Positions 4,245-38,567 are shown, counted from the first letter of the stretch. The stretch is 64,000 nt of DNA from Candidatus Mcinerneyibacterium aminivorans (GCA_008086245.1 VSIX01000029.1:11813-75812); one strand, 5' to 3'. Program-made: numbers and translations. Notes: generated from the sequence alone by a model not told the origin.

Positions 4245-4286
4245 TGATTAATTGTGAAATAATTAATTATTTATTTGGGGTTAATT

Positions 4287-5363: not shown

Positions 5364-5413
5364 ATTAAAATTATAATAACATACAGGTAAAACCATAAAA
5401 ATGGGAGGGATTA

Positions 5414-7628: not shown

Positions 7629-7629
7629 A

Positions 7630-8046: not shown

Positions 8047-8049
8047 AAA

Positions 8050-8499: not shown

Positions 8500-8523
8500 T
8501 AAGTGCTATAGGGGATTATTATT

Positions 8524-11537: not shown

Positions 11538-11538
11538 T

Positions 11539-12093
11539 ATGCTTGAACTTTACATTGTTTTAATATTAATGATAATTGGAGCTATAATAGCAGTAGAAAC
11601 AAAAAGTATTTTATCTTCGATAGTTGCTCTGGGTAAAGTAGGACTGGGGCTTACCATTGCCTTTTTGATATTAAAAGCTCCGGATTTGGCTATAGTTCAG
11701 CTAGTTGTTGAGATTTTAACCCTAATAATACTTATCCGTGCAACTCTTGGAAGAGATGTAAAATATACTAAAGAAAATCAGAACTGGGGGGTTAAATTTC
11801 TCTCAATTATTTTAATTATTATCTTTTTAATTTTTTCCTACAATGTTTTACAATCATTGCCGGAGTTCGGAAATCCAATATTAAAAGTTGCAGATTACTA
11901 TATAGAAAACGGCATGAAAGAAACGGGAGCTGCAAATCTTGTTACTTCTGTTATTCTTGATTTCCGTGCCTTTGATACTTTAGGAGAAGCAACAGTTTTA
12001 TTTACTGCTATTTTAGGAGCTTTAGCGGTTTTAAGAAAAAATGGAATTAAGGATAAAGATACAAAGGAAAATAAAGGAGTTCAAGGTGATTAA
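11539..12093 (+). CDS. Separately encoded MrpA C-terminal-like / MnhB-domain subunit (MbhD/E-like)
   Basis: N-terminal TM region plus NLVTSVILDFRAFDTLGEATVLFTAILG, the MnhB-domain signature. Confidence 0.6.
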   Translation: MLELYIVLILMIIGAIIAVETKSILSSIVALGKVGLGLTIAFLILKAPDLAIVQLVVEILTLIILIRATLGRDVKYTKENQNWGVKFLSIILIIIFLIFSYNVLQSLPEFGNPILKVADYYIENGMKETGAANLVTSVILDFRAFDTLGEATVLFTAILGALAVLRKNGIKDKDTKENKGVQGD

Positions 12094-12535
12094 TAACAGA
12101 GATTCTCAGGGTATGTCAGTAATTGTAAAAACTATTACAAGGTTGACTATTGGATTGATTCTTCTGTATGGTGTGTACATATTATTACACGGACATATTA
12201 CACCGGGAGGAGGTTTCGCCGGGGGAGTTATAATTGCCCTGTCTTTTATACATATAATGCTTGCTTTTGGAAAAAATGTTGCCCTTGAGAAATTAAATCA
12301 AACCTGGAGCAAAATTTTTGAAAGTACAGGGGCGCTGTTATTTATTACTATAGCATTTCTCGGTTTTTTTGGAGGGGTGTTTTTTAATAATTTTCTGGAT
12401 AAAGGAGAACATTTTGAACTTTTCAGTGCCGGAACAATCTTGCTTTCGAATATTGCAATATTTTTAAAGGTTGGAGCAGGTTTGTTTCTTTTATTTGTTG
12501 CTCTTGTTCTATTTAAAATTGGGGGTAGAAAGTGA
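12086..12535 (+). CDS. MrpB-like subunit (MbhF-like)
   Basis: HGHITPGGGFAGGVIIA is the MrpB signature. The tracked start (12041) overlaps the upstream gene. GTG 12086, preceded by AAAGGAG, is preferred. ATG 12113 is an alternative. Confidence 0.55.
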   Translation: MINNRDSQGMSVIVKTITRLTIGLILLYGVYILLHGHITPGGGFAGGVIIALSFIHIMLAFGKNVALEKLNQTWSKIFESTGALLFITIAFLGFFGGVFFNNFLDKGEHFELFSAGTILLSNIAIFLKVGAGLFLLFVALVLFKIGGRK

Positions 12536-12867
12536 TATATTTTCTTTGCTTTATATTATTTAGTATTGGACTTTATAGTATATTAACAAAAAGAAATCTC
12601 ATTAAAATTATAATCGGGATATCCATAGTTGATTATGCAATAAATTTATTCTTTATTTTGGTGGGATATAGAATGAATGGGAGATCTCCAATTTTAGAAA
12701 AAGGAGAAGAAATTGAAAGAATAGTCGATCCATTGCCCCAGGCCGTAGTTTTGACTTCTATTGTTATCGGTCTGGCAGTAACTGCATTACTGGTAGCAAT
12801 TGCTATTAGAATATATGAAAAATATGGTACTTTTGATATCAATGAAATTAAAGAATTGAAAGGATAA
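12532..12867 (+). CDS. MrpC/NuoK-like subunit (MbhG-like)
   Basis: 111 aa, 3 TM segments, NuoK/MrpC-like. Confidence 0.6.
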   Translation: MIYFLCFILFSIGLYSILTKRNLIKIIIGISIVDYAINLFFILVGYRMNGRSPILEKGEEIERIVDPLPQAVVLTSIVIGLAVTALLVAIAIRIYEKYGTFDINEIKELKG

Positions 12868-12869
12868 AA

Positions 12870-14363
12870 ATGGAACATATTATACCATTGTTTGTAGCAA
12901 TAAGTCTGGCAACAGCATTTTTAATATCACTGCTGGGATCAAAATTTAAATTTTTTAGAACAGCATTTCCTGTCATTTCTTCAGCTGCACTTGTTATACT
13001 TTCTGTTCTTTCAATTTTTCTTGTAAATAATAATGGTTTAATGGTATATAAAATGGGAGGCTGGATTCCTCCTATAGGAATATGTATGGTTCTGGACGGA
13101 TTGTCTTCCTTTATGCTTTTAACCGTTAATTTAGTTGCTTTTTTTATAATGATATATTCAATAAATTATGTTAAAAAATATACAGATGTTTATAAATATT
13201 TTGGGCTGCTATTTTTGATGCTGGCAGGAATGAATGGTGTAATTATAACAGGGGATCTTTTCAATTTATTTGTGTATTTGGAAGTTGCTGCAGTATCAAG
13301 TTATGCTCTTGTAGCTTTTGGTACAGGGAGACAGGAGCTGGAAGCATCCTTTAAATATATGGTTATGGGAACACTTGCTTCCGGTTTAATATTGTTATCA
13401 ATTGCTTTAATGTACAGCTATACTTCAACTTTAAACATGGCTGATATTGGCAAATCTCTTGCAAATGAAGGAAGTTCTTCCGTGATAATTTTTATTTCAG
13501 TAATGTTTATTGTAGGTTTTGGTCTAAAAGCAGCACTTGTGCCGTTTCACTGGTGGCTGCCCGATGCTCACCCATCTGCACCTGCACCTATTTCTGCTAT
13601 GCTTTCAGGGGTGCTTATAAAAGCATTAGGAGTTTATGCTATAATAAGAATATTTTACAATGTTATCGGAAGCAATATATATACTTCAAGAATATTGCTT
13701 GTATTAGGAACCCTTTCCATGATAGTTGGAGTAATTTTCGCAATTGGACAGTATGACTTTAAAAGATTGCTTGCATACCATTCAATAAGTCAGATCGGTT
13801 ATGTTATACTTGGAATCGGTTTGGCAACTCCTCTCGGAATTTTGGGGGGACTTTTCCATTTATTTAACCACTCAATATTCAAATCATTGCTCTTTTTAAA
13901 CTCGGGAGCTGTTGAATATTCAACCGGAACAAGAGATTTAAAGAAAATGGGTGGACTTAATAAGAAAATGCCGGTAACCGGAAATACATCAATGATAGCT
14001 TCTATGTCAATAGCTGGGATTCCACCTTTTAACGGATTCTGGAGTAAGCTTTTGATAATAATCGCCTGTGTAGAAGCTAATGAGTATATTTATGGACTAT
14101 TTGCTGTCATAGGTAGTGTTCTTACAATGGCATCCTTTATGAAAGTTCAGAAATATGCATTTCTGGGCAAACTAAAGGAAAAGTGGAAAAATATAGAGGA
14201 AGTACCATTTGGAATGAAGTTTTCTATGATTTGTTTGGCTCTTATTTGTGTATTTGGTGGTTTATTACTGTTACCTGAAATATCTAATTTATTACTGAAA
14301 GAAGCATCAAATGCAGTTTTAATAGGTAAAGAATATGTTAACCAGGTTCTGGGGAGTGTTTAA
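12870..14363 (+). CDS. Second antiporter-like subunit (MrpD/NuoM-N-like)
   Basis: 497 aa. LLAYHSISQIGYVILGIG and WWLPDAHPSAPAPISA fit the MrpD/NuoM family. Confidence 0.75.
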   Translation: MEHIIPLFVAISLATAFLISLLGSKFKFFRTAFPVISSAALVILSVLSIFLVNNNGLMVYKMGGWIPPIGICMVLDGLSSFMLLTVNLVAFFIMIYSINYVKKYTDVYKYFGLLFLMLAGMNGVIITGDLFNLFVYLEVAAVSSYALVAFGTGRQELEASFKYMVMGTLASGLILLSIALMYSYTSTLNMADIGKSLANEGSSSVIIFISVMFIVGFGLKAALVPFHWWLPDAHPSAPAPISAMLSGVLIKALGVYAIIRIFYNVIGSNIYTSRILLVLGTLSMIVGVIFAIGQYDFKRLLAYHSISQIGYVILGIGLATPLGILGGLFHLFNHSIFKSLLFLNSGAVEYSTGTRDLKKMGGLNKKMPVTGNTSMIASMSIAGIPPFNGFWSKLLIIIACVEANEYIYGLFAVIGSVLTMASFMKVQKYAFLGKLKEKWKNIEEVPFGMKFSMICLALICVFGGLLLLPEISNLLLKEASNAVLIGKEYVNQVLGSV

Positions 14364-14857
14364 TGAGAAGCAAAATAGTTTTATTTATAGTGGCGTTGGT
14401 AGTTTGGCTGGGTTTCACCTGGCCACCTGATTTGTCTCATTTGTTGGTAGGAATACTTGTAGCTATTTTCGTGGCTTACATGACAGGTGATATGTTTATA
14501 ACACGTCCACATCACTTAATACATCCTTTGAGGTATTTCTGGCTATTTGTCTATATTCCTGTGTTTATATGGGAATGTTTTAAAGCTAATCTGGATGTCG
14601 TTTACAGGGTTATCCATCCTGATGTTCCTATTAATCCGGGTATTGTTAAAGTTAAAACCAAATTAAAGTCGGATACTGGAATTACTTTTTTAGCCAATTC
14701 TATTACCCTAACACCTGGAACCTTAAGTGTGGATGTAGATCAGGATAATGGATACTTATATATCCACTGGATCCATGTTTTTAATGAAGATGTTGAAGGA
14801 GCAACTAAAGATATTGTTAGAAGATTTGAATATATATTGGAAAGGATTTTCGAATAA
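14363..14857 (+). CDS. MrpE-like subunit (MbhA-like)
   Basis: 164 aa, N-terminal TM pair. Position in the Mrp E-F-G series. Confidence 0.5.
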   Translation: MRSKIVLFIVALVVWLGFTWPPDLSHLLVGILVAIFVAYMTGDMFITRPHHLIHPLRYFWLFVYIPVFIWECFKANLDVVYRVIHPDVPINPGIVKVKTKLKSDTGITFLANSITLTPGTLSVDVDQDNGYLYIHWIHVFNEDVEGATKDIVRRFEYILERIFE

Positions 14858-15228
14858 TGAAAAAGAGATTGCGATGGATTTTAGGTTCTGTAGTTTTAAT
14901 TATAATATTATATTTAATTTTATTTTATCCCTTCCAGATATTAATATATGAGAAATTATTATTTATACCTGTATTAAAAAGGGTAATCTTTATTCTCTTA
15001 TTGAGTGCAGCTTTTTGTTTGTTTAGGATTATGAAAGGACCTACTGCTCTGGATAGAATAGTTGCTATTGATATTTTGGGGATATTAATTGTTGGGTTAT
15101 GCTCTGTATTAACTATTACCACCGGAAGAAGCTGGTATCTTGATATAGGTATAGCCTGGGCATTACAGAGTTTTATAGGAACAATAGCACTTTCAAAATA
15201 TATGGAAGGGCGGGATTTTGATGATTGA
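14857..15228 (+). CDS. MrpF-like subunit (MbhB-like)
   Basis: 123 aa, small 3-TM protein immediately following the MrpE-like ORF. Confidence 0.5.
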   Translation: MKKRLRWILGSVVLIIILYLILFYPFQILIYEKLLFIPVLKRVIFILLLSAAFCLFRIMKGPTALDRIVAIDILGILIVGLCSVLTITTGRSWYLDIGIAWALQSFIGTIALSKYMEGRDFDD

Positions 15229-15565
15229 TACTATAGGGATTATTTTTATAGGTCTAGGGATCTTTTTTGACCTTTTTGGTTGTTTGGGTTTAATAAGATT
15301 TCCGGATTTATATAATAGGCTACAGGCATCAACCAAATGTGTTACATTTGGAACGGGAAGTATTTTATTTGGAACTTTTTTAATAGTGGGATTTACAGCG
15401 GCAGGTATAAAAGCATTATTTACAATTATCTTTATTGTTCTTACAGCGCCGGTTTCTGCCCATGCTTTGTCCAAAAGTGCACATATGTCCGGAATACCAT
15501 TATGGCAGGAAAGTGTATGCGATAAATTGGAAGATGAAAACAGATATAAAAAGAACGACCAGTAG
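15218..15565 (+). CDS. MrpG-like subunit (MbhC-like)
   Basis: 115 aa, TM-rich. ...TAPVSAHALSKSAH resembles the MnhG family. Confidence 0.55.
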   Translation: MMIDTIGIIFIGLGIFFDLFGCLGLIRFPDLYNRLQASTKCVTFGTGSILFGTFLIVGFTAAGIKALFTIIFIVLTAPVSAHALSKSAHMSGIPLWQESVCDKLEDENRYKKNDQ

Positions 15566-15595
15566 TATTATAAAATATAATAGTGAGGGATAAAT

Positions 15596-16234
15596 ATGAA
15601 GCTACCCAGTCTTTTTCAGTTTAGAGTTTTAAAAGAGGCTTTAAAATCAATATTTTCGCCGAGATATACTTCCAAATATCCGGCTGTGTCCCATGTTCCC
15701 CCAAAAAAATTTAGGGGGAAACCGGAATTTAATGAGAAAGAATGCGTTGGTTGTAAGGCTTGTGCCGAAGTTTGTCCTACAGAGGCAATTGAGGTAGTTG
15801 ATGATGTTGAAATATCGCCTCCTAATAGAAAATTTCTTCATCATTATGATTTATGTATATTTTGCGGTCACTGTGAGGCGAACTGTATTACAGAAAAGGG
15901 GATTGTTTTAGAAGACGAATACGATCTTGCTGTGTTTGATAGAGACGAAGCATTTACTTCTATTGATAAAGAATTAATAATCTGTGAGGATTGTGGGGAA
16001 ATAATTGGGGCTAAGGATCATTTAATCTATCTGGCTAAAAAATTAGGGCCTCTTGCTTACGGTAACTTCCCCCTTATTATGACAGCACAAAAAGAACTAA
16101 AAATCGTAAACAGAGATCTTCCTTCCACAATATCTGGAGAAAAAAGAAGAACGGACATGTTTAATGTACTGTGCCCCAAATGTAGAAGTGAAATACTTAT
16201 AAATATTGGTGGAAGTGAGAATGAAGAAGATTGA
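15596..16234 (+). CDS. NuoI-like 2x[4Fe-4S] subunit (MbhN-like) with a Cys-rich C-terminal extension
   Basis: CVGCKACAEVCP and CIFCGHCEANC motifs. An extra CEDCGE...CPKC pair lies in the C-terminal ~80 aa. Confidence 0.75.
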   Translation: MKLPSLFQFRVLKEALKSIFSPRYTSKYPAVSHVPPKKFRGKPEFNEKECVGCKACAEVCPTEAIEVVDDVEISPPNRKFLHHYDLCIFCGHCEANCITEKGIVLEDEYDLAVFDRDEAFTSIDKELIICEDCGEIIGAKDHLIYLAKKLGPLAYGNFPLIMTAQKELKIVNRDLPSTISGEKRRTDMFNVLCPKCRSEILINIGGSENEED

Positions 16235-16667
16235 CGACATATTAAAAGGGAAGGTACTTTTTGTAGGAATCGGAAATGAAATGAGAGGAGATGATGGGAT
16301 AGGTCCTTTTTTTGTCAAAAAGGGGCGAAGATTATTAGATGATTATCAGTTTTTGAATGTAAAAGAAACACCGGAAAATTATTTTGACAAAATGTTAGAA
16401 AAGGATATTGATACTTTAATATTTGTCGATGCCGTTGATTTTAATTCATCACCCGGAACCATCAAATTATTTGGTAAAGATCAGATTGTTAATTCTTCAA
16501 TATCCACACATAATTCATCATTAAAAATGTCGATTAATTTTTTAAAACAATTTAAAGCAAATCTAAGAATATTTTTAATAGGAATTCAACCTGAGAACTG
16601 TCAATTGAATAACAATTTATCATTTAATGTGAAAAGTAGTATTGATAGACTTCTAGATAAACTATAG
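16206..16667 (+). CDS. hycI: Hydrogenase maturation endopeptidase (HycI/HybD family)
   Basis: VLFVGIGNEMRGDDGIGPF matches the GiGN...DDg.G protease signature. Confidence 0.8.
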   Translation: MVEVRMKKIDDILKGKVLFVGIGNEMRGDDGIGPFFVKKGRRLLDDYQFLNVKETPENYFDKMLEKDIDTLIFVDAVDFNSSPGTIKLFGKDQIVNSSISTHNSSLKMSINFLKQFKANLRIFLIGIQPENCQLNNNLSFNVKSSIDRLLDKL

Positions 16668-16704
16668 TTCTTTATTTTAATTAATTTTTAGAGAGAGTAC
16701 AAAA

Positions 16705-17061
16705 ATGGATAATATGGATATAGCGGATGATTTATATTTACTTATTAAAGACCTTGCAGAAGAAGAAAATATACACTCTGTAAAGTATATTAAATTGGTA
16801 ATTGGTAAAGCATTGGAGGTTAATAAGAAAGGATTATTCAAAAAATTACAGAAGGATATATTTCCCGGGACAATTTGTAAGAATACTAAATTGGATATTG
16901 TAGAAGAAAGTGTGAAATTAAAGTGTAGAAAATGCAGCAAAATTATGACACCTGATCAAAAGTTTTTTGTATATTGTAATTATTGCGGGGGGCATGATTT
17001 TGATATTATTCAGGGTAGAAAGATATATATTGACAAAATTGAAGGGAAGACAAAGCAATAA
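16705..17061 (+). CDS. HypA-like zinc-finger protein lacking the N-terminal MHE nickel-binding motif (HypA paralog)
   Basis: CRKC-14 aa-CNYC zinc finger. Overall alignment to HypA is good, but the N-terminus is MDNMDIADD, not MHE. Confidence 0.55.
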   Translation: MDNMDIADDLYLLIKDLAEEENIHSVKYIKLVIGKALEVNKKGLFKKLQKDIFPGTICKNTKLDIVEESVKLKCRKCSKIMTPDQKFFVYCNYCGGHDFDIIQGRKIYIDKIEGKTKQ

Positions 17062-17079
17062 AAATTATAAGGAGGAAGT

Positions 17080-17724
17080 ATGGAGATTGTGAAAATTGGG
17101 AAAGAGGCAATGAAAAAAAATGAAAATTTTGCTGATAAAAATAATAAATTACTTACAGATAATGATATATTTGCCGTTGATGTTATGGGATCGGTTGGTT
17201 CGGGAAAAACATCAATAATTAAGCAAATAATTAAAAAATTAAAAAATAAACAAAGAATTGGAGTGATAGCAGGGGATTTGACTACTGAGATTGATGCCAG
17301 GCGAATTGAAGAGGAAGGAGTACCTGTAATACAGATTCAAACGGGAAGAGTGTGTCATTTGGATGCTGGACTTGTACAAAAAGCTATTACAAAATTTAAT
17401 TTGGCGGATATAGATTTATTATTTATAGAAAATGTAGGTAATTTAATTTGTCCTGCAGGCTGTCCGATAGGAGCCCATATGGAACTTGTTGTTACTTCTG
17501 TGACCGAAGGGCCCTATATGATTCAGAAACATCCACCGATGTTTCAAAGAGCCGATACAGTAGCTATGAATAAAATAGATTTTGCCGAAAAGATGGAAAT
17601 CTCAATTGAAAATTTTAAAGAAGATTTGAGTAAAATTAACCCGACATCTAAATTTGTCGGGACTAACGGGTTAACCGGCGAAGGGGTTGAAGAGTTAATT
17701 GAATGCATGAATTTACCGCAGTAA
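17080..17724 (+). CDS. hypB: Hydrogenase nickel incorporation GTPase HypB
   Basis: GSVGSGKTS P-loop. ENVGNLICPAGCPIGAH is the HypB signature. 214 aa. Confidence 0.85.
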   Translation: MEIVKIGKEAMKKNENFADKNNKLLTDNDIFAVDVMGSVGSGKTSIIKQIIKKLKNKQRIGVIAGDLTTEIDARRIEEEGVPVIQIQTGRVCHLDAGLVQKAITKFNLADIDLLFIENVGNLICPAGCPIGAHMELVVTSVTEGPYMIQKHPPMFQRADTVAMNKIDFAEKMEISIENFKEDLSKINPTSKFVGTNGLTGEGVEELIECMNLPQ

Positions 17725-18104
17725 AAAATATTATCAATATTATTTTAAAAGCTGCAAGGGATAATAATGCAGAAAAAATATATTCAATTAAAATCGGTAT
17801 AGGTGAATTAACAATGCTTGAGAAAAATCAGATCCAATACTGGTTAAAGCTAATGCTGGATGAGATAGATATAGCCAAAAACAGCAAGTTAAATTTACAT
17901 ATAATAAAAGGCGTTATAAGATGTCAGGAGTGCAATTTTAAGGGACCGCTTGAATCAACTATGGAACTTAACCATCTTTTCCCTGTAATTAAATGCCCGG
18001 AGTGTGAAAGCAATAATATTGAAATTATTAAAGGGGACAGATGCCTTGTAGAAGAAATGGAAGTAGATAAATATAATGAAAGTATATCAGGAGGGGATAA
18101 TTAA
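17703..18104 (+). CDS. hypA: Hydrogenase nickel insertion protein HypA (canonical)
   Basis: N-terminal MHEFTAV (MHE Ni site). CQEC...CPEC zinc finger. Overlaps hypB by 22 nt. Confidence 0.85.
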   Translation: MHEFTAVKNIINIILKAARDNNAEKIYSIKIGIGELTMLEKNQIQYWLKLMLDEIDIAKNSKLNLHIIKGVIRCQECNFKGPLESTMELNHLFPVIKCPECESNNIEIIKGDRCLVEEMEVDKYNESISGGDN

Positions 18105-19414
18105 TGTGCTATGCTATTCCTGGACAGGTTGTAGATATTAATAAGAAAAGATTGATTGTAGAGTATTTCGGTGAAAAAAGAAAGGTCCTAAACGAATTTT
18201 TGGATATCAGCATAGGAGATTATATATATGCCCAGGGGGGATATGCCATCAATAAAATACCCGAAAAGGAAGCCGTATCCATTTTAACTGCATGGAGGGA
18301 AACTTTTTTCAATTTGCAAAAAGTTGATTTAAAAATATCTAAAAGGGATTATAAGGATAAAAATATTAGAAAAGATATTGCGAATATACTGGATAAAGCT
18401 GTAGAAAATAAAGACCTTTCTAAGAAAGAACTTTTAAAACTGATGAATATAGAAAAAAAAGAAGAATTAGAAATGCTTTATAAAACGGCAAATTTTTTGA
18501 GAAGAAAATATATGGGTAATTCATGCTGTGTTCATGGAATTATAGAATATTCGAATAACTGTGTTCGTAATTGTAAATATTGCGGTATATCTACTTATAA
18601 TTCTGATATATCAAGATATAATATAGAAGAAAAAAATATTGTTAAAATTGCAAATAAAGCTGTTAACGAGCATGGCTTTATGGCTCTGGTTTTACAGAGT
18701 GGTGAATCTGATGAGTACAGTATTGAAAAACTATGCAGGATTATAAAAAAAATTAGAAAAGATATTGCTGTTTTGATTTTTATAAGTATGGGAGAACTTT
18801 CCAGAAAAGAATTGCAAAAATTGTATGATGCAGGGGCAAGAGGTTTTCTCCTGCGGTTTGAAACAAGCAATGAAGAGTTATATTCAAAATTACATCCCGG
18901 ATATAGATTGGAAGATAGAATTAACTGTATACAAAACGCTTCTGATATAGGTTATTTTATTGTAACAGGTGGTTTAATTGGACTCCCCGGGCAAACAAGA
19001 AAAGATGTATTAAATTCCATATTGCTTGCGAGAAAACTTAAAACCGAAATGTACAGCTTTGCCCCCTTTATACCCACACCTAATACTCCCCTTAACAGTG
19101 AAACCAGTCCGGAAGAAAAAGAAGTTTTAAAAACTCTGGCTATATCCAGAATAGTTGATCCAGAGAATGCCAAAATATTAATTACAACTGCATTTGAAAC
19201 AATAAATAAATCGGCAAGAAAAAATGGCCTTCTAGCTGGAGGTAATTCTTTAATGTTAAATGTTACTCCCGATAAATATAAAAATAATTATTTCTTGTAT
19301 CCAAACAGGGCTCATAATAATGAAACTATACAGGAACAAATTGATGAAACCGTAAATCTGCTGAATTATCTCGGTAGAGCCCCAACTGATATAGGTATAA
19401 ATTGGAATAGTTAA
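18104..19414 (+). CDS. Fusion protein: N-terminal HypC/HupF-like domain (MCYAIPG...) fused to a HydE/BioB/PylB-family radical SAM domain
   Basis: First ~70 aa: MCYAIPGQVVDIN...GDYIYAQGGYAI...EKEAVSILTAWRE, a HypC pattern with Cys2. From ~aa 125: LRRKYMGNSCCVHGIIEYSNNCVRNCKYCGIS (CX3CX2C), LQSGE, LLRFETSNEELYSKLHP, IGLPGQT and FIPTPNTPL, close to HydE motifs as remembered. Start overlaps the hypA stop (TAATG). Confidence 0.7.
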   Translation: MCYAIPGQVVDINKKRLIVEYFGEKRKVLNEFLDISIGDYIYAQGGYAINKIPEKEAVSILTAWRETFFNLQKVDLKISKRDYKDKNIRKDIANILDKAVENKDLSKKELLKLMNIEKKEELEMLYKTANFLRRKYMGNSCCVHGIIEYSNNCVRNCKYCGISTYNSDISRYNIEEKNIVKIANKAVNEHGFMALVLQSGESDEYSIEKLCRIIKKIRKDIAVLIFISMGELSRKELQKLYDAGARGFLLRFETSNEELYSKLHPGYRLEDRINCIQNASDIGYFIVTGGLIGLPGQTRKDVLNSILLARKLKTEMYSFAPFIPTPNTPLNSETSPEEKEVLKTLAISRIVDPENAKILITTAFETINKSARKNGLLAGGNSLMLNVTPDKYKNNYFLYPNRAHNNETIQEQIDETVNLLNYLGRAPTDIGINWNS

Positions 19415-24921: not shown

Positions 24922-25722
24922 ATGTTAAATATTAATGATAAGCATGTTAAAATGATAGTTGAATGGATGAGAAAGCAGGTTAAAAAAAGAGATGCTGATG
25001 GAGCAATTGTAGGTTTAAGCGGTGGAGTGGATTCATCAGTTGTTGGTGGGTTAGTAAAAAAAGCATTTAAAGATAATAGCCTGGGAGTTATGCTTCCTTC
25101 AAGTGGTACGATAACTAAAGATGTTAAATATGCTCAAAAAGCAGCAAATAGGTTTGATCTTGATACAATAAAAGTTAATGTTAAAAATGTTTATGATGAA
25201 TTTGTTAAAACTTTTGAAGATATCAACATTAAAGATGTCGAAAGAAATTATTGGCCACAAACTCATATTCCGACTGATAATCCCCAGTATCAAAATATCT
25301 CTACACGCTTAAGGATGATGTCTCTTTATCATATAGCGGAAAGAATGAATTATGTAGTAATGGGAACAAGTAATAAAAGCGAAATACTAACAGGATATTT
25401 TACATTATATGGAGACGGGGCAACTGATATGAGACCTATTGGAGGGTTATATAAAACAGAAGTCTGGGACCTGGCAGAGTATATAAAAGTTCCAGAGAAA
25501 ATAGTCGATAGACCTCCTTCTGGAGGTTGCAGGGGAGACGAAACAGATAGAGATGAATACGAATTTGGTATAGACTATCAAACTTTTGATCAAATTCATG
25601 AGGCCATGATAAAGAACAAACCTCTTGATGGATTTGATGATGATGATATAAAAAGAGTGAAGGAACTAATTGAAGCTGCAGATAAAAAATCTAAAATTCC
25701 AACCTTAAAAGTTAATAGATAA
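24922..25722 (+). CDS. nadE: NH3-dependent NAD+ synthetase
   Basis: GLSGGVDSS PP-loop. 266 aa, typical NadE length. Confidence 0.85.
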   Translation: MLNINDKHVKMIVEWMRKQVKKRDADGAIVGLSGGVDSSVVGGLVKKAFKDNSLGVMLPSSGTITKDVKYAQKAANRFDLDTIKVNVKNVYDEFVKTFEDINIKDVERNYWPQTHIPTDNPQYQNISTRLRMMSLYHIAERMNYVVMGTSNKSEILTGYFTLYGDGATDMRPIGGLYKTEVWDLAEYIKVPEKIVDRPPSGGCRGDETDRDEYEFGIDYQTFDQIHEAMIKNKPLDGFDDDDIKRVKELIEAADKKSKIPTLKVNR

Positions 25723-25886: not shown

Positions 25887-26375
25887 ATGGAATTAAGATA
25901 TGATTCATATTGCGGATTATATTGTGGAGCCTGTCCATTTTTTAATGCAACGGTTGAAGGAGAAGAAAAACTGGATAAATTGTATGAGAAAATTAAAGAA
26001 AATAACAACCAAATTGAAAAATCTGATTTGAAGTGTAAGGGGTGCAAGAGCAATACGCATTCTGCTTATTGTGAAAATTGTGAAATAAGAGTATGTATAG
26101 AAAAAAAAGATTTAAATTTTTGTTATGAATGCGATCAGTATCCGTGTGAATTTTTGAGTAATTTTAGAAAAGATAGTGCAGCTCATCATTCAATAATATT
26201 CAAGAATCTTGAAACTATACAGATGCTGGGAGTTGATAAATGGATAGAAAATCAAGAAAAAAGATGGCAGTGTGATAATTGCTCAGAAAAATTTACGTGG
26301 TACAAGAAAATATGTGATAATTGTAATAAAGAATTATTTAATGCTGTTAAAGAGGAAGAATTGTTGGAAGAATAA
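25887..26375 (+). CDS. Cysteine-rich protein (DUF3795-like zinc-ribbon family)
   Basis: CGLYCGACPF, CKGCKSN, CENCEIRVC and CYECDQYPCEF Cys clusters. 162 aa. Confidence 0.5.
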   Translation: MELRYDSYCGLYCGACPFFNATVEGEEKLDKLYEKIKENNNQIEKSDLKCKGCKSNTHSAYCENCEIRVCIEKKDLNFCYECDQYPCEFLSNFRKDSAAHHSIIFKNLETIQMLGVDKWIENQEKRWQCDNCSEKFTWYKKICDNCNKELFNAVKEEELLEE

Positions 26376-26436: not shown

Positions 26437-27348
26437 TTATATATATATTTTTTTCAGGGTTAGTTCATCAAGGTTAAATTTGCCGAGATTCAGGTCTTTA
26501 CCATCATTAAGATATTTAATTTCTTCAGGTTTAAATCCAAGTATTTGTGAGGCTGCAACATCAACAGCAAGTATATCAGTGCTGATTAACTGCATTTTTT
26601 TTGTTACTACTTTGCTGTTGTAATATCCCGAAGGGCCTCCTCTTACCATTACATTATAGGCATCTACGATATTTAAATCAGGTTTCCTGTAATTGAAAAT
26701 TTCTGCTATACATCTGTGTAGTCCATTTCTGTGATAAAACGATCTATCCCACACAATTCCCATAAAATTTTTCATAGCACTGGTCATTTTTGTTGATCCA
26801 TGTGTTTTTAATACTGGAATATTTATTAATTTATCAGCAGAGAGAACGAGTTCATGCACTTCTGCAGTATTTAAAATTTTTGTATTAGCAATTTTTACCT
26901 TATTAAAATATTTTGGGCTGGAAGCTGGAACTATTTTAGCTTTTGTGCCACTAACTGCATTTTTTATCCCGCTTACCCTATAGGTGGTGTCAGCGTTATA
27001 AATGGTATGATCAAAAATATTCACCTCTTTCGCACCCAAATCAAGACATGCCTGCAGTACAGTTTTAACAAGTGTTGGATTAGTATTACCTCCATCATCG
27101 GGTGAGGAATTCCATGAAGCATTTACCTTTATAGCTACTGAATCCCCTTTTTTTATGAACTTTTTTAATCCTCCCAGATAAGGTATTCCCTTTTTAAACA
27201 TAACATCAGGGCTGCCTCCCTGTACAGCGACAAGTTCGTAATTATTGCTATTCTGCCCCAGAATAAGTGGAGTTCCGGATACAAGATATCCAATTGAGGA
27301 AGCCCCAATTATTTTTAAAGATTTTTTTATAAAATCTCTCCTATCCAT
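26437..27348 (-). CDS. Tat-signal DUF362-family protein (exported, putative redox/cofactor protein)
   Basis: N-terminal MDRRDFIKKSLKIIGASSIGYLVSG (twin-arginine motif RRDFIK). The rest resembles the DUF362 family. Confidence 0.55.
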   Translation of the reverse strand: MDRRDFIKKSLKIIGASSIGYLVSGTPLILGQNSNNYELVAVQGGSPDVMFKKGIPYLGGLKKFIKKGDSVAIKVNASWNSSPDDGGNTNPTLVKTVLQACLDLGAKEVNIFDHTIYNADTTYRVSGIKNAVSGTKAKIVPASSPKYFNKVKIANTKILNTAEVHELVLSADKLINIPVLKTHGSTKMTSAMKNFMGIVWDRSFYHRNGLHRCIAEIFNYRKPDLNIVDAYNVMVRGGPSGYYNSKVVTKKMQLISTDILAVDVAASQILGFKPEEIKYLNDGKDLNLGKFNLDELTLKKIYI

Positions 27349-27397
27349 ATAGTCCTCCTTTACCTAATATTTCATATTTTTATTATATTCTATTTTT

Positions 27398-28849
27398 TTA
27401 AAATGGAAACTTTTCTTCTTTAATTTCTTTTTCAACTTTTTGTTCCTTAATCTGCAATTTTTTATGGTTTTTAAAGGGTTCAACTTTTATGGCTCTTACT
27501 GGACGTGTTGGGCATGCATATTCACATGAGCCGCAGCCAACACATTTGCTGTTATCAATCTCGGGGGCTTTTAAATTCTTTTTATAAGCTATCATGTGAA
27601 CGGCTCCTGTTGGACATATTTCGGCACAGGCACCGCAGGATTGATTTTTAGCATATACTACACATATATTTTTATCTAATCCCGATTTGCCCAAAGCAGT
27701 TTTTTGCTTTTCTTTTAAAGATATGTAAGTAAGAGCATCCGTAGGGCAGACTCTGCTGCAGTCATTGCAAAAATAATCACAAAATGATTCTTCATAATCC
27801 AAAACAGGATAATTAGCTGCTGGCTGAAGTACATTTGTAGGGCATACTTCTACACATCTAAAACAGTTAATACAATTATTAAGGTATTTATTTAAAGTAT
27901 TCCCCCCAGGAGGAAATGTTTTTGTTTTATCAAAGGTATGAGATTGGGGTATAAAATTTTTTATCCTAATTATTCCGGAGAATAATAATAAGAAAAAGAT
28001 ACTTCCCAATTTTTTTAAAAAATTTCTTCTATTGACAATATTGTTATCATTCATGGTTTTATTTTGCTTTAAATATTTAAAACCAAAGCTAATTGCATCG
28101 GTTGGGCAAATGGCCATACAGTTAAAACATCGTATACATAATGAATTTTCAATATTTTGTTCTTCTATATTAATGCAGCTTGTTTTACATGTTACTTCGC
28201 ATTTGCCGCATTCAATACAGACAGAATTTTTTATACTCAATTTCATAGCAGAAAATTTTGATAATATTCTGAAAATAAATCCTGTTGGGCACATATAAAG
28301 ACAGAAAAATCTTTTTCTAATGATTAAAGAAGAAAATAATATAGTAATATATAATAGCAGGATATAAACGATTATTGTTATATTGGTATCGGAAAAGACT
28401 GATTTTATCATAAATGTAATTTTACTTGATATAGAATATGGTTCCAAAGCGGAAGTTATCACTTTAAGATTAAAAACAAATGATATTAAAAATAATATAA
28501 AGACAGAGAAAGATATATATAAAGTTTTCCTGCTATTTATATGAATATTTGATTTTAATATTCTTATCTTGGCATATAAGAATTCAAAAAAATCCTGTAG
28601 TATTCCCATAGGGCAGAAAAGTGAACAGTAAATTCTTCCAAATAAAAATAATAAAAAGAAATTTATAACTGTAAAGATAAGAAAGAGAATTGTAAAATTT
28701 AATAATAATCCGATTAAAGAAGGCATAAACTGTATAGAGAAAAAATATTCATTGATTAATTTGTTGGATGAAAAATAAGAAATCCCAAAAAAAGCTAATA
28801 TGAAAATTATTTGCCAAATTATTCTAAATATCTTAAGATTCTTTTTCAT
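27398..28849 (-). CDS. Membrane polyferredoxin: NapH-like N-terminal half fused to a NapG-like Tat-signal-bearing 4x[4Fe-4S] ferredoxin half
   Basis: N-terminal TM helices with CSLFCPMG and CLYMCPTG (NapH CxxxCP motifs). Mid-protein MNDNNIVNRRNFLKKLGSIFFLLLF (internal twin-arginine motif). It is followed by four CxxCxxCxxxCP clusters. Confidence 0.6.
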   Translation of the reverse strand: MKKNLKIFRIIWQIIFILAFFGISYFSSNKLINEYFFSIQFMPSLIGLLLNFTILFLIFTVINFFLLFLFGRIYCSLFCPMGILQDFFEFLYAKIRILKSNIHINSRKTLYISFSVFILFLISFVFNLKVITSALEPYSISSKITFMIKSVFSDTNITIIVYILLLYITILFSSLIIRKRFFCLYMCPTGFIFRILSKFSAMKLSIKNSVCIECGKCEVTCKTSCINIEEQNIENSLCIRCFNCMAICPTDAISFGFKYLKQNKTMNDNNIVNRRNFLKKLGSIFFLLLFSGIIRIKNFIPQSHTFDKTKTFPPGGNTLNKYLNNCINCFRCVEVCPTNVLQPAANYPVLDYEESFCDYFCNDCSRVCPTDALTYISLKEKQKTALGKSGLDKNICVVYAKNQSCGACAEICPTGAVHMIAYKKNLKAPEIDNSKCVGCGSCEYACPTRPVRAIKVEPFKNHKKLQIKEQKVEKEIKEEKFPF

Positions 28850-29576
28850 GACTGTCTCCCCCAGTATTTTTTACAAATTTAGAAATAAATACTGTTAATT
28901 CAAAAAGTAAATATAAAATTATTCCTACAATAATTTGAGATATTATATCAGGGGGGGTAAATAGGGCAGCTATTAAAAAAATTCCTATAATGGCATATTT
29001 TCTAATGCTTTTTAAATATTTGTAGGAAATAATATCTAATTTAACAAGAAACAAAAGCAGAATAGGAATTTGAAAACAAAATGCAAGTATAATTATTAGA
29101 ACAAATATGAGGTCAATATATGATGAAAAGTTTAAGAGTGGTTTAATATCATCCTGTGAGGAAAAGCTCATAAAAAATTTTATTGTAAAAGGAGCCAAAA
29201 AGTTATAAACAAAATAGATAGAGAAAAAATATAATAAGGGAGAAAAAAATGAAATCATAAGGAATTCTTTTTTTTCTTTTTTATAAAGTGCAGGGTAGAT
29301 AAAAGAGAGTAAAAGAGCTGCGGTAATGGGAATGGTTAAAAGTAAAGATATATAGAAAGAAAATTTCATGTAAGCTAAAAATTTTTCGTATATTTTGAAA
29401 AAGTAAAAATTTAAGGAAGGAAGATTAGATTTTGCAAATGGTTGAGAAATAATTTCAATTAAGTAATTCCTAAATATAAAAGCTATTATAAAAAAAAATA
29501 TCAAAAAAAATAATGAAAATATAACCTTTTTTCGGAATATTTCTAAATGGTCAAAAAAATTAAGATCTTTTCTCAT
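28833..29576 (-). CDS. tatC: Twin-arginine translocase subunit TatC
   Basis: 247 aa. N-terminal FDHLEIFRKK matches the TatC HLxELRxR motif. 6 TM segments. Confidence 0.75.
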   Translation of the reverse strand: MRKDLNFFDHLEIFRKKVIFSLFFLIFFFIIAFIFRNYLIEIISQPFAKSNLPSLNFYFFKIYEKFLAYMKFSFYISLLLTIPITAALLLSFIYPALYKKEKKEFLMISFFSPLLYFFSIYFVYNFLAPFTIKFFMSFSSQDDIKPLLNFSSYIDLIFVLIIILAFCFQIPILLLFLVKLDIISYKYLKSIRKYAIIGIFLIAALFTPPDIISQIIVGIILYLLFELTVFISKFVKNTGGDSHEKES

Positions 29577-29581
29577 AAAAA

Positions 29582-29779
29582 TTAGTTTTTATTATCTCTA
29601 TTATTTTTGCTGCTTTCTTCTTTTATTTCATTATCTTTTTCTTCAAAAGAGGAAAACTCTTTTTTGAATTCTCTGTATGCTTTACCCATAGACTTTGCAA
29701 CTTCCGGTAATCTTTTTGCTCCAAATAAAATTAATACAATAAATAGAATAAGCAATATTTCGGTAAATCCAATACTCAT
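29582..29779 (-). CDS. tatA: Twin-arginine translocase subunit TatA/E
   Basis: MSIGFTEILLILFIVLILFGAKRLPEVAKSMGKAYREFKK is a typical TatA N-terminus. Confidence 0.8.
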   Translation of the reverse strand: MSIGFTEILLILFIVLILFGAKRLPEVAKSMGKAYREFKKEFSSFEEKDNEIKEESSKNNRDNKN

Positions 29780-29893
29780 AAGACCTCCTTTAAAAATTAT
29801 TTACTATTTATTATAATTTAGGATTTATAAAATGTCAATTATGTTGTTAATTATAAAATATTTAAATTTTTTTTAAAAAAATCAAAAAAACGT

Positions 29894-30374: not shown

Positions 30375-31193
30375 CTATAAATAATTTCTCTTTTTTGAAT
30401 TATTGATAGTTGCATATAACTCAATAAAGGGTTTGATGGTGCTAAATTTTATTTTGGGGAGTAATACTTTTTCAACCTGAAATAACCCTGCTGACTCTTT
30501 CATATGAACATTTATTCTTATAGGCTTGTTTTTTCCTTCATCTATTTCAAGTTTGGTTATGGTTTGTGCCGAAAATCGATGGATATCACCTGCTTTTGCT
30601 TCATTAGAAAGCAGGGAAGGTATTCTGGCGCGTCCTTTTTCCAAATCACATCCATCTGCAATAATAACCAATCCTGCTTCTATTGAAGTAATAGTTCTAT
30701 TAGCCATATGTCCAATTATGCCTTCTATTACAGTAGATCTTATTACAGTTCTTTTTTCAATATTTTTAGGGTATATTTTTTTTAATAATCTGGTAATTAT
30801 TGGAATAGATAAATTGACACTTAAAAATTCATGATTATCTCTTCCTATACTCATTCCTATATCATGAAGTAAGGATGCCAGTAAAATACTAATTCTGCTA
30901 TCTTCACTGTTGCCCAGCTCTTCTTTTTCAAGATTAAATTTAATATTTTTATTTTTAAGCAAACCAAACATTATCATGGCATTTAAAGCTGTTTTTTTCA
31001 TATGAACCGGTCCATGGTCATTGTATCCCAATCTTTTAATTGAAACGATGTTAGAATGATTTTGTAGTGTTATTATTTCCCTGTCATTAAAAATTAAGGA
31101 AGCAATTTGTTTTGATTTGCCGGATAATTTTGATAAAATACCATCTTCTAATTTATTTTCCTTATATGATTTTTGCATAAAGATCTCCTCCAT
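30375..31193 (-). CDS. HD-domain metal-dependent phosphohydrolase
   Basis: HGPVH...LLASLLHDIGM, the H...HD motif pair. 272 aa. Confidence 0.55.
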   Translation of the reverse strand: MEEIFMQKSYKENKLEDGILSKLSGKSKQIASLIFNDREIITLQNHSNIVSIKRLGYNDHGPVHMKKTALNAMIMFGLLKNKNIKFNLEKEELGNSEDSRISILLASLLHDIGMSIGRDNHEFLSVNLSIPIITRLLKKIYPKNIEKRTVIRSTVIEGIIGHMANRTITSIEAGLVIIADGCDLEKGRARIPSLLSNEAKAGDIHRFSAQTITKLEIDEGKNKPIRINVHMKESAGLFQVEKVLLPKIKFSTIKPFIELYATINNSKKRNYL

Positions 31194-31234
31194 TCATAAT
31201 ATTATTAAAAAGTTGGGATTCTGTTAATTACAAA

Positions 31235-32320
31235 TTATTTTTTATAATAAATTCTATACAGGTAGCCATTTTTATCATCTGATACAATTAAAGATCCATC
31301 ATTTATAACTTCAACATCTACAGGTCTTCCAAACTTCTTATTATCCTTAAGCCATCCATCGGCAAAAACGGTGTACTCATACTGGTTATTTATCTTTTTA
31401 ATATTGGTTACTCTATATCCAATAGGGGTTGAACGATTCCAGGATCCATGCTCTGCTATAAATATTGTATTATAATATTCTTCCGGGAATTGATTTTTAT
31501 TGTAGAATCTCATTCCGAGTGAAGCTACATGGGGACCCAGTTTAACTACAGGTTTTATATATTTTTTGTTATTATCCAGTTTTTTTCCATATTTTGGATC
31601 TAAAATATTTTCTCCGTGAATAAATGGAAAACCAAAATGTAAATTTTGATTTTCTGCTTTATTTAATTCATCTGGAGGAATATTATCTCCCAGCCAGTCT
31701 CTACCATTGTCTGTAAACCATAGTGTTTCGGTTTCAGGGTGCCAGTCAAAACCCACAGAATTTCTTATTCCCCGTGCAAATATTTCAAAATTAGTCCCAT
31801 CCAAATCAAGCCTGCAGATAGATGCAAAGTGTTTATTTTCTGATAAACATACATTGCAGGGAGCACCAATAGAAATATATATTTTTCCATCTGGACCAAT
31901 TTTTAAATATCTCCATTCATGGTGGGTCTGTTCCGGTAGGTCATCATAAAGAATTGAAAATTGAGGTGATTTTAAATTAGACATTATATTTTCAAATACT
32001 AGGATTCTATTAACTTCAGCAACATACAGATTACCTTTATAATAATCTATTCCATTGGGCTGATTTAAATTATCCGCTACAGTAATAATTTTATCGGCTT
32101 TAAAGTCATTATCTGTATCAATTACTGCATACAGCTTTTGAGTCCTTGTGCCAACAAATATAGTACCTTTTTCAGCAAATGCTAGTGTTCTTGCACCTTT
32201 TATGTTTTTAGCGTATATCTCTATATGGAAATTTTCCGGAATATTAATTTTGTTTAAATCTATTGCCCAAAATGAGATTGTAATTACAAAAAAAACTAAT
32301 ATTATGCCAAATTTTTTCAT
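31235..32320 (-). CDS. Secreted soluble aldose/sorbosone dehydrogenase-like beta-propeller (PQQ-dependent sugar dehydrogenase family)
   Basis: Signal peptide. FTDNGRDWLGDNIPPDELN and overall YliI/sorbosone-DH family resemblance. 361 aa. Confidence 0.6.
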   Translation of the reverse strand: MKKFGIILVFFVITISFWAIDLNKINIPENFHIEIYAKNIKGARTLAFAEKGTIFVGTRTQKLYAVIDTDNDFKADKIITVADNLNQPNGIDYYKGNLYVAEVNRILVFENIMSNLKSPQFSILYDDLPEQTHHEWRYLKIGPDGKIYISIGAPCNVCLSENKHFASICRLDLDGTNFEIFARGIRNSVGFDWHPETETLWFTDNGRDWLGDNIPPDELNKAENQNLHFGFPFIHGENILDPKYGKKLDNNKKYIKPVVKLGPHVASLGMRFYNKNQFPEEYYNTIFIAEHGSWNRSTPIGYRVTNIKKINNQYEYTVFADGWLKDNKKFGRPVDVEVINDGSLIVSDDKNGYLYRIYYKK

Positions 32321-37796: not shown

Positions 37797-38567
37797 ATGG
37801 AAAATCTATACGACAGTCATGTACATATAAATTTAAATCAATATGATAAAAATAGGGAAAAAATTATAAAAATGTGTGAAAACAAACTTGATTTCATGAT
37901 TAATATCGGAATTGATGAGAAAAGTTCAGAACAATCTATAGCTTACAGCTTTCAATATGATTTCATATATGCTACCGTAGGGGTTCATCCAACAAATATC
38001 AAAGAGTACACTGATAAGCTTGAAAAAAGACTTTTTAAGATGGGAAAAGAAGAAAAGGTAGTAGCAATTGGTGAAATTGGACTTGATTATCACTGGATGA
38101 AGGATCCAAAAGATTACCAGAAAGAAATTTTTAGAAGGCAAATGGAAATTGCCAGAAAACTCAACAAACCTGTTGTAATTCATAGCCGGGAGGCACAGGA
38201 TGATACTTTTAAAATACTAGAGGAATTCAGTAATGAAGTTTATGGAGTAATGCATACATATGCAGGAGATATTGAAACAATGAAAAAGTTGAAAAATATG
38301 GGTTATTATTTTTCTTTTTCAGGACCTGTTACTTTTAAGGGGAAAAGAAGTGATTATACACGAAAAGTAGTTAAAAATACTCCGATTGAAAGAATCTTGA
38401 TCGAAACCGATTCGCCCTTTTTAGCTCCCCAGCCTATGAGGGGAAAGGTCAATGTGCCAACAAATGTTGAGTATGTTTTTGAAAAGATTGCCGAAATTAA
38501 AAATATGTCAAAAGAAAAAGCTCTTTTCATCCTTAGAAATAACGCAAAAGAGATTTTTGGAATTTAG
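37797..38567 (+). CDS. TatD-family metal-dependent hydrolase/DNase
   Basis: YDSHVHINL N-terminal His motif. 256 aa. IETDSPF family motif. Confidence 0.75.
   Translation: MENLYDSHVHINLNQYDKNREKIIKMCENKLDFMINIGIDEKSSEQSIAYSFQYDFIYATVGVHPTNIKEYTDKLEKRLFKMGKEEKVVAIGEIGLDYHWMKDPKDYQKEIFRRQMEIARKLNKPVVIHSREAQDDTFKILEEFSNEVYGVMHTYAGDIETMKKLKNMGYYFSFSGPVTFKGKRSDYTRKVVKNTPIERILIETDSPFLAPQPMRGKVNVPTNVEYVFEKIAEIKNMSKEKALFILRNNAKEIFGI

Follow-up and report, generated by a model that had tools for sequence, protein, structure and literature searches.

A stretch of 64,000 nt from Candidatus Mcinerneyibacterium aminivorans (VSIX01000029.1:11813-75812, assembly GCA_008086245.1; the whole of it is called the window below) carries four minus-strand genes that encode TatA and TatC of the twin-arginine translocation (Tat) system, a 483-aa polytopic polyferredoxin (PFD), and a protein of the DUF362 family. 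These genes appear to specify an electron-transfer module of the NapGH type that faces the periplasm and has a probable catalytic partner without precedent, and we found no prior description of it in the searchable literature. The new part is the DUF362 protein as conserved partner of the PFD, which gives the orphan polytopic polyferredoxin a physiological partner.

The pairing was examined in 129 loci of this DUF362 subfamily, which were scanned with hidden Markov models (HMMs). Forty-five came from GTDB species genomes and eighty from metagenomes, with a few from exact-match look-ups. Lineages were counted as de-replicated clusters at 90 per cent (103 lineages) or 70 per cent identity (49 lineages). 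Among lineages whose contig leaves room for a neighbour, a PFD gene directly adjoins the DUF362 gene on the same strand in 87/91 clusters at 90 per cent identity and in 41/43 at 70 per cent. The hosts span about nine phyla: Bacteroidota (Parabacteroides, Tannerella, Muribaculaceae, Rikenellaceae), Ignavibacteria, Lentisphaerota/Victivallales, Spirochaetota, Planctomycetota, Omnitrophota, Ratteibacteria, WOR-3, and Mcinerneyibacteriota. The DUF362-PFD pair picked out in the initial annotation thus recurs in other genomes. The tatA and tatC genes lie in the flanks of 12/103 lineages at 90 per cent identity and 7/49 at 70 per cent, including Spirochaetes, Victivallales, Lentisphaeria, the phyla with a split PFD (see below), and this window. 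This recurrence suggests that the DUF362-PFD pair is a principal Tat client in organisms with flanking tatAC. A strict motif scan of the window for other Tat substrates matched the internal motif of the PFD alone, though the scan was too strict for completeness, as it also missed the signal of the DUF362 protein.

No other gene is conserved with the pair across phyla. In Ignavibacteria the pair stands alone amid unrelated genes, and the neighbours in loci that carry lar genes (see below) vary. We considered cydAB and other recurring neighbours as a clue to the substrate and set them aside as Bacteroidales synteny. In the Bacteroidales loci (L011-L027), a 524-aa and a 380-aa membrane protein are found near the pair in about 10-12 loci. 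They resemble CydA and CydB by eye only, a resemblance that would place the pair beside a quinol oxidase, and most likely reflect lineage synteny. Long DUF362 proteins were considered as Rosetta-stone fusions and turned out to have mis-called starts or unrelated N-terminal extensions.

As the initial annotation had it, the four genes form one minus-strand cluster, and each of the four open reading frames (ORFs) is in place: tatA (29582-29779, 65 aa; PF02416, E = 1.8e-20; TIGR01411, 66.4 bits against a cutoff of 53.9), tatC (28833-29576, 247 aa; PF00902, E = 1.2e-49; TIGR00945, 155.8 bits against 132.7), the PFD gene (27398-28849), and the DUF362 gene (26437-27348, 303 aa; PF04015, E = 2.7e-44). 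The Pfam score of the last is 152.1 bits against a gathering threshold of 24, and positions 1-199 of the 200 in the profile are covered. In the order tatA/tatC/PFD/DUF362, the junctions are a 5-nt gap, a 17-nt overlap (tatC/PFD), and a 49-nt gap, and Shine-Dalgarno sequences precede the tatA, PFD, and DUF362 genes. The four genes are a tight, operon-like unit. Upstream of tatA on the same strand is a sigma-70-type promoter-like site (TTGACA-17-TATAAT, 29810-29838), identified only by its 12/12 match to the consensus.

Architecture of the polyferredoxin

The PFD joins a NapH-like half (residues 1-265, nt 28055-28849; all PFD features are on the minus strand) to a NapG-like half and has five transmembrane (TM) helices and seven predicted Fe-S sites. 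By hydropathy, the TM segments are at residues 10-28, 52-70, 110-128, and 159-177, with a TM5 core at 281-294. For TM1-4, hydropathy and the helices of the AlphaFold2 (AF2) model agree. Both of the CX3CP motifs previously noted in the membrane half are present, CSLFCP (residues 75-80, nt 28610-28627) and CLYMCP (residues 183-188, nt 28286-28303). The earlier count of 4Fe-4S sites holds for the C-terminal half, where four cysteine motifs (326, 357, 396, and 436) lie within a NapG-like, predicted periplasmic domain (residues 299-483, nt 27401-27955) whose sixteen cysteines are all invariant. That count is incomplete for the N-terminal half, which has two 4Fe-4S motifs of its own: a cytoplasmic 2x[4Fe-4S] domain with two CX2CX2CX3C motifs (residues 211-249, nt 28103-28219). 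Across a 52-sequence PFD alignment, all twenty-eight motif cysteines are invariant, namely those of the two CX3CP motifs, of the two motifs before residue 250, and of the four after residue 326. This pattern implies three cytoplasmic and four periplasmic clusters.

Between the two halves lies an internal twin-arginine (RR) motif with a weakly hydrophobic TM5 (nt 27956-28033; RR at residues 274-275, nt 28025-28030), followed by R295 and K297. The internal segment reads NRRNFLKKLGSIFFLLLFSGII (residues 273-294). The AF2 model has a single continuous helix over residues 274-298, flanked by two low-confidence linkers, and the hydropathy peak at 281-294 falls within it. Among homologs, the motif is kept as S-[RK]-R-x-F-[LI], with R275 in 113/120. 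In 52/52 homologs no other TM segment is as weakly hydrophobic as TM5: on a simplified Hessa-scale sum, used here in place of the dGpred server, its median is +3.6, where the medians of TM1-4 lie between -1.0 and -2.4. The net charge after TM5 is at least +1 in 33/50 homologs.

The N-terminal half is NapH-like, not NapH. It matches NF007013 (E = 4e-27, residues 47-263) at 95 bits against a cutoff of 234 and TIGR02163 at 92.3 bits against 213. The C-terminal half likewise matches the NapG models PRK09476 (E = 1.2e-17, residues 268-463) at 64 bits against 269 and TIGR00397 at 54 bits against 179. We found no solved NapH-type structures, and the PFD model matches the ferredoxin parts of FwdF, RnfB, and NuoI only.

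In Omnitrophota, Ratteibacteria, and related metagenome-assembled genomes (MAGs), the PFD is split, and the gene order is DUF362, NapH-like, NapG-like, tatA, tatC. These five-gene loci (L028, L030, L032, L033, L035-L037, and L039) come from Omnitrophota, Ratteibacteria, and unclassified MAGs. The split NapH-like protein has about 200 aa, four TM helices, and two CX3CP motifs, and the split NapG-like protein has about 195 aa, four clusters, and its own MKRREFLK signal. Because the split loci encode the NapG-like half with its own signal, we read the C-terminal half of the window PFD as a NapG-type Tat passenger.

The dual Sec/Tat fusion architecture is already published. Protein Q1NSB0 of the delta proteobacterium MLMS-1 was described as a 'polytopic polyferredoxin' and explicitly named a NapH::NapG fusion (Tooke et al. 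2017, eLife, PMC5449189). It has five TM helices, with an RR motif immediately ahead of TM5, and its 4Fe-4S clusters are divided between the cytoplasmic side (three) and the periplasmic side (four); its reporter fusions require both Sec and Tat (PMC5449189). The handover from Sec to Tat needs a weakly hydrophobic TM5 that is followed by positive charges (PMC5449189). The window PFD shares the sequence features of this protein: the five-TM layout with RR before TM5, the low hydrophobicity of TM5 with trailing positive charges, and the three plus four 4Fe-4S sites. The homology is distant (BLASTP E = 3e-8), with only 21 per cent identity over the NapH-like part, and the loops of the window PFD are shorter. 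In addition, Q1NSB0 is without a described partner enzyme, whereas the window PFD has the conserved DUF362 protein and, in several phyla, tatAC or larBCE neighbours. Thus the earlier idea of a NapG-like half fused in frame behind its own internal Tat signal was right, as the conserved RR and the free NapG-like genes of the split loci both indicate, but it is not new.

The fusion itself is genuine. An independent Joint Genome Institute (JGI) metagenome contig that is 99.8 per cent identical has the same unbroken PFD ORF next to the DUF362 gene. More than 1,180 PFD homologs were found at E <= 1e-10, in Bacteroidales, Ignavibacteria/Melioribacter, Rifleibacteriota, and others; they are typically 505-535 aa long, and most can be aligned over their full length. 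An artefact (a frameshift or an assembly join), the concern raised in the initial annotation, or separate translation of the C-terminal half from Met266 could appeal to the two-gene versions in other phyla and to the methionine eight residues ahead of the RR motif. We regard both as effectively refuted, with only a vanishing probability left to them. The second assembly is continuous, over 1,000 full-length fused homologs are known, and the fused architecture was validated experimentally in a distant homolog. No Shine-Dalgarno sequence stands before Met266, unlike the tatA, PFD, and DUF362 starts. The JGI gene caller (L046) begins the PFD at Met42 (442 aa), which would remove TM1. The 483-aa start appears to be the better call, because homologs align from residue 1 and R9, Q40, and P43 are nearly invariant.

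The DUF362 protein and its relation to LarA

The N-terminus of the window DUF362 protein (MDRRDFIKKSLKIIGASSIG) has a twin-arginine motif and then a hydrophobic region. The predicted Tat signal peptide (MDRRDFIKKSLKIIGASSIGYLVSGTPLILG, nt 27256-27348, minus strand) begins MDRRDFIK and is disordered in the AF2 model. An RR motif is found in 119/120 close homologs, in 123/146 diverse representatives (50 per cent identity), and in 17/17 members adjacent to lar genes. Tat targeting, first proposed for the window protein alone, is therefore subfamily-wide, and a scenario in which the homologs are without Tat signals fails.

The AlphaFold model of the protein has a predicted local distance difference test (pLDDT) score of 87.4 and a predicted template modelling (pTM) score of 0.86. 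A Foldseek search of this model against the PDB gave nineteen matches at E <= 1e-3, among them 5huq, 9eia, 2yjg, 4nar, 9q3j, 6d6z, and 7s91. All are LarA-family nickel-pincer nucleotide (NPN) enzymes, with a probability of 1.00. The window DUF362 protein is thus predicted to have the fold of the LarA N-domain, the part that binds the cofactor. In Pfam, DUF362 and LarA_N (DUF2088) belong to one clan, CL0471 (PMC11770544). Searching the PDB by sequence with a DUF362 profile found no match even at E <= 10.

In LarA, NPN is tethered to a lysine via a thioamide, a histidine completes the nickel coordination, and His108 and His174 act as acid and base in catalysis; cofactor binding falls to the N-domain and substrate binding to the C-domain (PMC12611868, PMC13524815). 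We checked the LarA sequences against PDB chains and compared them with DUF362 in an unfiltered HMMER alignment and in two hhalign runs against the N-domain. We take the NPN tether to be Lys184 and the nickel ligand to be His200, presuming the residue numbers to be those of Desguin et al. 2015. All three alignments gave one colinear register (DUF362 = LarA): H183 = His174, K193 = Lys184, H206 = His200, N76 = Asp72, and D172 = Asp163. The His-x9-Lys spacing is identical in the two proteins. The candidate cofactor site thus covers nt 26731-26802 on the minus strand, with H183 at 26800-26802, K193 at 26770-26772, and H206 at 26731-26733. Residues H183, K193, H206, K74, N76, K181, T189, R202, D229, and D263 are conserved family-wide, even in distant cytoplasmic members from archaea and the candidate phyla radiation (CPR), and the first three are invariant. 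Runs of hhalign against one LarA sequence and against full-length LarA gave spurious low-probability alignments, the second of which drifts into the C-domain. Among the hhalign runs tried, only the N-domain-restricted and deeper-profile ones gave the colinear register.

Genes for NPN biosynthesis stand beside the module in three arrangements. Many Bacteroidales contigs have a divergent larC-larE-larB operon, with larC 3-287 bp from the DUF362 start. The order DUF362-PFD-larE-larB-larC is found in the WOR-3 group and in locus L061, and one Lentisphaeria MAG has DUF362-PFD-larC-tatA-tatC. In the contigs that encode the DUF362 protein P0127, DUF362 and PFD are followed by three overlapping genes, larE, larB, and larC, which score 338 bits for LarE (cutoff 150), 270 for LarB (175), 185 for LarC (90), and 152 for LarC2 (50) against the NCBIfam equivalogs. 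P0127 is 51 per cent identical to the window protein, and its cluster at 90 per cent identity includes a protein from a WOR-3 MAG. No larA homolog was found in any scanned locus.

Adjacent lar genes were found in 15/103 lineages at 90 per cent identity, in 8/41 with at least 3 kb on both flanks, and in 5/49 at 70 per cent identity. By a rough estimate that assumes one larC per about 3,000 genes and six neighbouring positions, chance would give such adjacency in at most about 0.1 of the 49 lineages, against the five observed. All seventeen of the lar-adjacent DUF362 proteins combine the RR signal with the same twelve core residues as the window protein. These shared features place them and the window protein in one subfamily, so what is inferred about NPN transfers to the DUF362 protein of the window.

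The DUF362 family is large (about 5,000 clusters at 50 per cent identity), and we found no functional literature on DUF362/COG2006/PF04015 proteins in what is searchable, and none on Mcinerneyibacterium. A 2026 Nat Chem search for new nickel-pincer enzymes arrived at a family with the aldo-keto reductase (AKR) fold, and its main text is without DUF362.

Host and surroundings of the operon

The window encodes BamA, AcrB, and a TolC-like protein, which marks the host as a diderm. The host also looks like a fermenter, with an Mbh/Mrp-type, ferredoxin-linked hydrogenase encoded there. The hydrogenase cluster extends over 13.9 kb (4073-17973) and belongs to group 4 of the [NiFe] enzymes. It includes genes for Fer4_22, an NAD-binding FeS protein, a NuoH-like protein, the NiFe large subunit, two antiporter-like subunits, MnhE, a ferredoxin, HycI, and HypB. 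The whole cluster is missing from a near-identical Logan assembly (SRR34871447_56), in which its left flank is 99.98 per cent identical to the window and its right flank only 93.0 per cent, a pattern that points to an island variable between strains or to a mosaic assembly. The TatA, TatC, and NadE proteins of the Logan strain differ from those of the window by a few residues. Just beyond the cluster, a 436-aa protein (18104-19414, plus strand) joins a HypC/HupF domain at its N-terminus (residues 1-64) to a radical SAM domain (residues 147-306), which is unusual in a hydrogenase maturation factor. The Logan contig has this gene call too.

Convergent with the DUF362 gene is a gene for a 162-aa Cys-rich DUF3795 protein (25887-26375, plus strand). 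The HMM scan found this gene in 0/45 of the loci from GTDB genomes, and it is probably outside the PFD-DUF362 system. A PP-loop ORF further along (24922-25722, plus strand) was considered as LarE; it is NadE (TIGR00552, 196 bits) and gave no LarE match. Some 700 bp separate nadE from the 3' end of the DUF362 gene, which is on the opposite strand, and nadE is also present in the JGI contig. Nicotinic acid adenine dinucleotide is a substrate of both NadE and LarB. The proximity is suggestive, and it is probably coincidence.

On the other side of the operon, a 361-aa GSDH-like beta-propeller protein with a hydrophobic N-terminus (31235-32320, minus strand) also matches, below the cutoff, the N-terminal domain of 'PVC-type heme-binding CxxCH proteins' (TIGR02604). 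A gene for a TatD-family DNase (37797-38567, plus strand) is about 8 kb from tatA/tatC on the other strand and is unlinked to them. GC skew is strongly positive along the window (1-64000), and nearly all genes are on the plus strand. The main exceptions are the tat-PFD-DUF362 operon and two genes at 30375-32320, where the skew falls to about 0. No tRNA genes or Rfam families were found in the 64 kb.

Proposed mechanism and alternatives

Several known systems resemble this module in part. In NapGH of E. coli and Wolinella succinogenes, and in the NapGH-like Qdh encoded next to pceA in Sulfurospirillum multivorans, there is a four-TM subunit with two CX3CP motifs and a cytoplasmic 2x[4Fe-4S] domain, as here, together with a Tat-dependent periplasmic four-cluster subunit that serves a Tat-exported catalytic subunit. 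Our module differs in being one fused polypeptide that scores below the equivalog cutoffs, and it has no NapA/NapB or PceA. Its partner is instead predicted to be a LarA-fold protein without an Fe-S, molybdopterin, or corrinoid motif. PceA of S. multivorans sets a precedent, as a Tat-exported enzyme that is not a nitrate reductase and is nonetheless served by a NapGH-like module (PMC4585668). MsrPQ (YedYZ) and its fused heme-MoCo relatives (Sco3746) are likewise self-contained modules, of two genes or one fused gene, in which a Tat-exported cofactor enzyme is joined by an electron-transfer partner in the membrane; they are widespread, have no dedicated regulators, and exist in both fused and split forms. 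Their folds are unrelated to those found here, and they use heme b and molybdenum cofactor where our module would use Fe-S centres and a putative NPN-like cofactor. NosR, NirI, and RdhC/PceC share the four-TM module with two CX3CP motifs and a proposed link from the quinol pool to periplasmic enzymes, and RdhC, like the split Omnitrophota form, is without a C-terminal Fe-S domain. These proteins have a periplasmic domain that binds flavin mononucleotide (FMN), in contrast to the periplasmic four-cluster ferredoxin behind a Tat-dependent helix here.

The model that we prefer, and to which we give somewhat better than an even chance, is that the DUF362 protein is an oxidoreductase of the NPN type that Tat exports to the periplasm, with the PFD as its electrical connection to the membrane. 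The operon would then encode a minimal TatAC translocase together with its two clients, which would form the periplasm-facing oxidoreductase. Sec would insert TM1-4 of the PFD, leaving the two CX3CP motifs and the 2x[4Fe-4S] domain in the cytoplasm. The RR-preceded TM5, with the pre-folded four-cluster NapG-like domain behind it, would pass to Tat and so reach the periplasmic side. The DUF362 protein would be loaded with NPN or a close relative in the cytoplasm, where LarB, LarC, and LarE make NPN, and such loading would be the rationale for its export in the folded state. Once exported, it could dock on the NapG-like domain in the periplasm, and electrons would pass between its cofactor and the membrane via the seven Fe-S centres. 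The far end of the chain may be the quinone pool, reached through the NapH-like module in line with proposals for NapH and RdhC, or else the cytoplasmic Fe-S domain. Observed are the anatomy of the genes, the conserved pairing, the Tat motifs, the LarA-like fold of the model, and the larBCE linkage in three other phyla. We infer, rather than observe, the identity of the cofactor in this organism, the physical docking, the substrate, and the direction of electron flow. On the last point we lean towards a periplasmic dehydrogenase, in which oxidation of the substrate would feed electrons inward, because the potential of an NAD-like hydride cofactor should be far below that of menaquinone.

The likeness to LarA consists of the predicted N-domain fold, the common Pfam clan, the alignment of His-x9-Lys and the later His, and the genomic link to larB, larC, and larE. 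The LarA superfamily comprises cytoplasmic 2-hydroxyacid racemases and epimerases, and the DUF362 proteins differ in being exported by Tat and paired with a seven-cluster electron-transfer protein. That pairing implies net redox chemistry rather than a 'hidden' redox isomerisation. A broader claim, which we judge to be evenly balanced, is that the Tat-exported DUF362 proteins are a large unrecognised class of NPN enzymes, the first that is extracytoplasmic and the first wired to Fe-S centres, and that they catalyse net redox reactions instead of isomerisations.

Several observations weigh against the NPN oxidoreductase model. Adjacent lar genes occur in just 15-20 per cent or so of lineages; neither the 64 kb of the window nor the adjoining 10 kb on each side (about 84 kb in all) contain larB, larC, or larE, and the small genomes of Omnitrophota and Ratteibacteria have no lar genes within 8 kb of the module. 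By sequence, the register with LarA is not significant (hhalign E = 0.11-0.22, with 3/40 column shuffles scoring at least as high), and in Pfam the window protein has no LarA_N match, with only DUF362 matching even at E <= 10. LarA His108 has no clear counterpart, as D113 and H114 align three to four residues off, and the substrate-binding C-domain is absent, the DUF362 protein ending about thirty residues past the region equivalent to the N-domain. For these three reasons (register, His108, and C-domain), the DUF362 protein is LarA-like and not a member of the LarA family. There is no flavin that could mediate between a hydride carrier and one-electron Fe-S centres, and PFD::DUF362 fusions were not found among 150 diverse representatives. 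The split NapH-like gene has no cytoplasmic ferredoxin domain, an absence which argues that this domain is dispensable for core function. As to quinol coupling, there are no quinone genes in the 64-kb window.

Some of the same observations would suit a DUF362 protein that is the catalytic partner of the PFD but uses another cofactor, with its His, Lys, and Asp residues binding a metal ion or some other ligand and larBCE reflecting co-regulation or another enzyme. The insignificant LarA alignment and the missing His108 and C-domain are what one would then expect, as are the window and the roughly 80 per cent of well-flanked lineages without adjacent lar genes, and in CPR (Nealsonbacteria) and archaea, too, DUF362 genes are found without lar neighbours. 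Tat export, too, is typical of proteins that acquire a metal in the cytoplasm. We nevertheless think this alternative unlikely. It leaves the lar genes to be explained in three phyla and three arrangements, at distances as short as those given above or in the same operon, always without larA and well beyond the rough chance expectation. Moreover, the predicted fold matches NPN enzymes only, and the His-x9-Lys spacing equals that of LarA.

The initial annotation favoured a different chemistry, in which a NapGH-type menaquinol dehydrogenase feeds the DUF362 protein as a new terminal reductase for a periplasmic acceptor, its cofactor left unspecified. The part of this proposal that stands is the DUF362 protein as conserved, Tat-targeted partner. 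Quinol oxidation and the reductase role stay putative, with scores far under the NapH and NapG equivalog cutoffs and with neither napA nor quinone genes in the 64 kb. A molybdopterin oxidoreductase was likewise found neither among the annotated ORFs of the window nor in the 129 related loci. The idea of a new respiratory reductase is plausible in outline: among NCBIfam models the PFD matches those for NapH and NapG best, NapGH and the NapGH-like Qdh pass quinol electrons to the Tat-exported NapA and PceA, and the DUF362-PFD pair is conserved and Tat-targeted. Menaquinone is known in many hosts of the pair, such as Bacteroidales and Ignavibacteria. On the other side, no regulator, substrate-specific gene, or other respiratory gene travels with the pair, which also occurs in small-genome fermenters (Omnitrophota, Ratteibacteria, and this organism) where respiration seems improbable, and reduction of an NAD-like NPN by menaquinol would probably run uphill. 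We therefore hold the reductase, too, to be improbable, to about the same degree as a cofactor other than NPN. Least probable of the three, by far, is that the DUF362 protein is no enzyme but an assembly, escort, or stabilising factor for the PFD, or that its adjacency to tatAC and the PFD is meaningless. In its favour, the searchable literature gives no substrate or activity for any DUF362 protein, and the tat genes of the window could be housekeeping copies. But the protein has a conserved Tat signal of its own, which means that it works outside the cytoplasm, and it combines an enzyme fold with a dozen invariant polar residues that look like an active site; pairing in 87/91 lineages across phyla also far exceeds chance synteny.

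If the broader claim about the Tat-exported DUF362 proteins is true, it would explain part of the long-noted excess of genomes that have larBCE without larA, and also why tatAC is sometimes embedded in the operon, since both clients would need their cofactors loaded in the cytoplasm. Should NPN indeed be used, the biology of this cofactor would extend from cytoplasmic racemases to extracytoplasmic enzymes coupled to electron transport; anaerobes would gain a new requirement for nickel, and larBCE would acquire a concrete client in those genomes that have no larA. A chemical question would follow as well: how a hydride-carrying pincer cofactor meets one-electron Fe-S centres without a flavin. 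The Tat-exported DUF362 protein and its PFD are present in gut Bacteroidales (Parabacteroides, Muribaculaceae) and in the other hosts named above.

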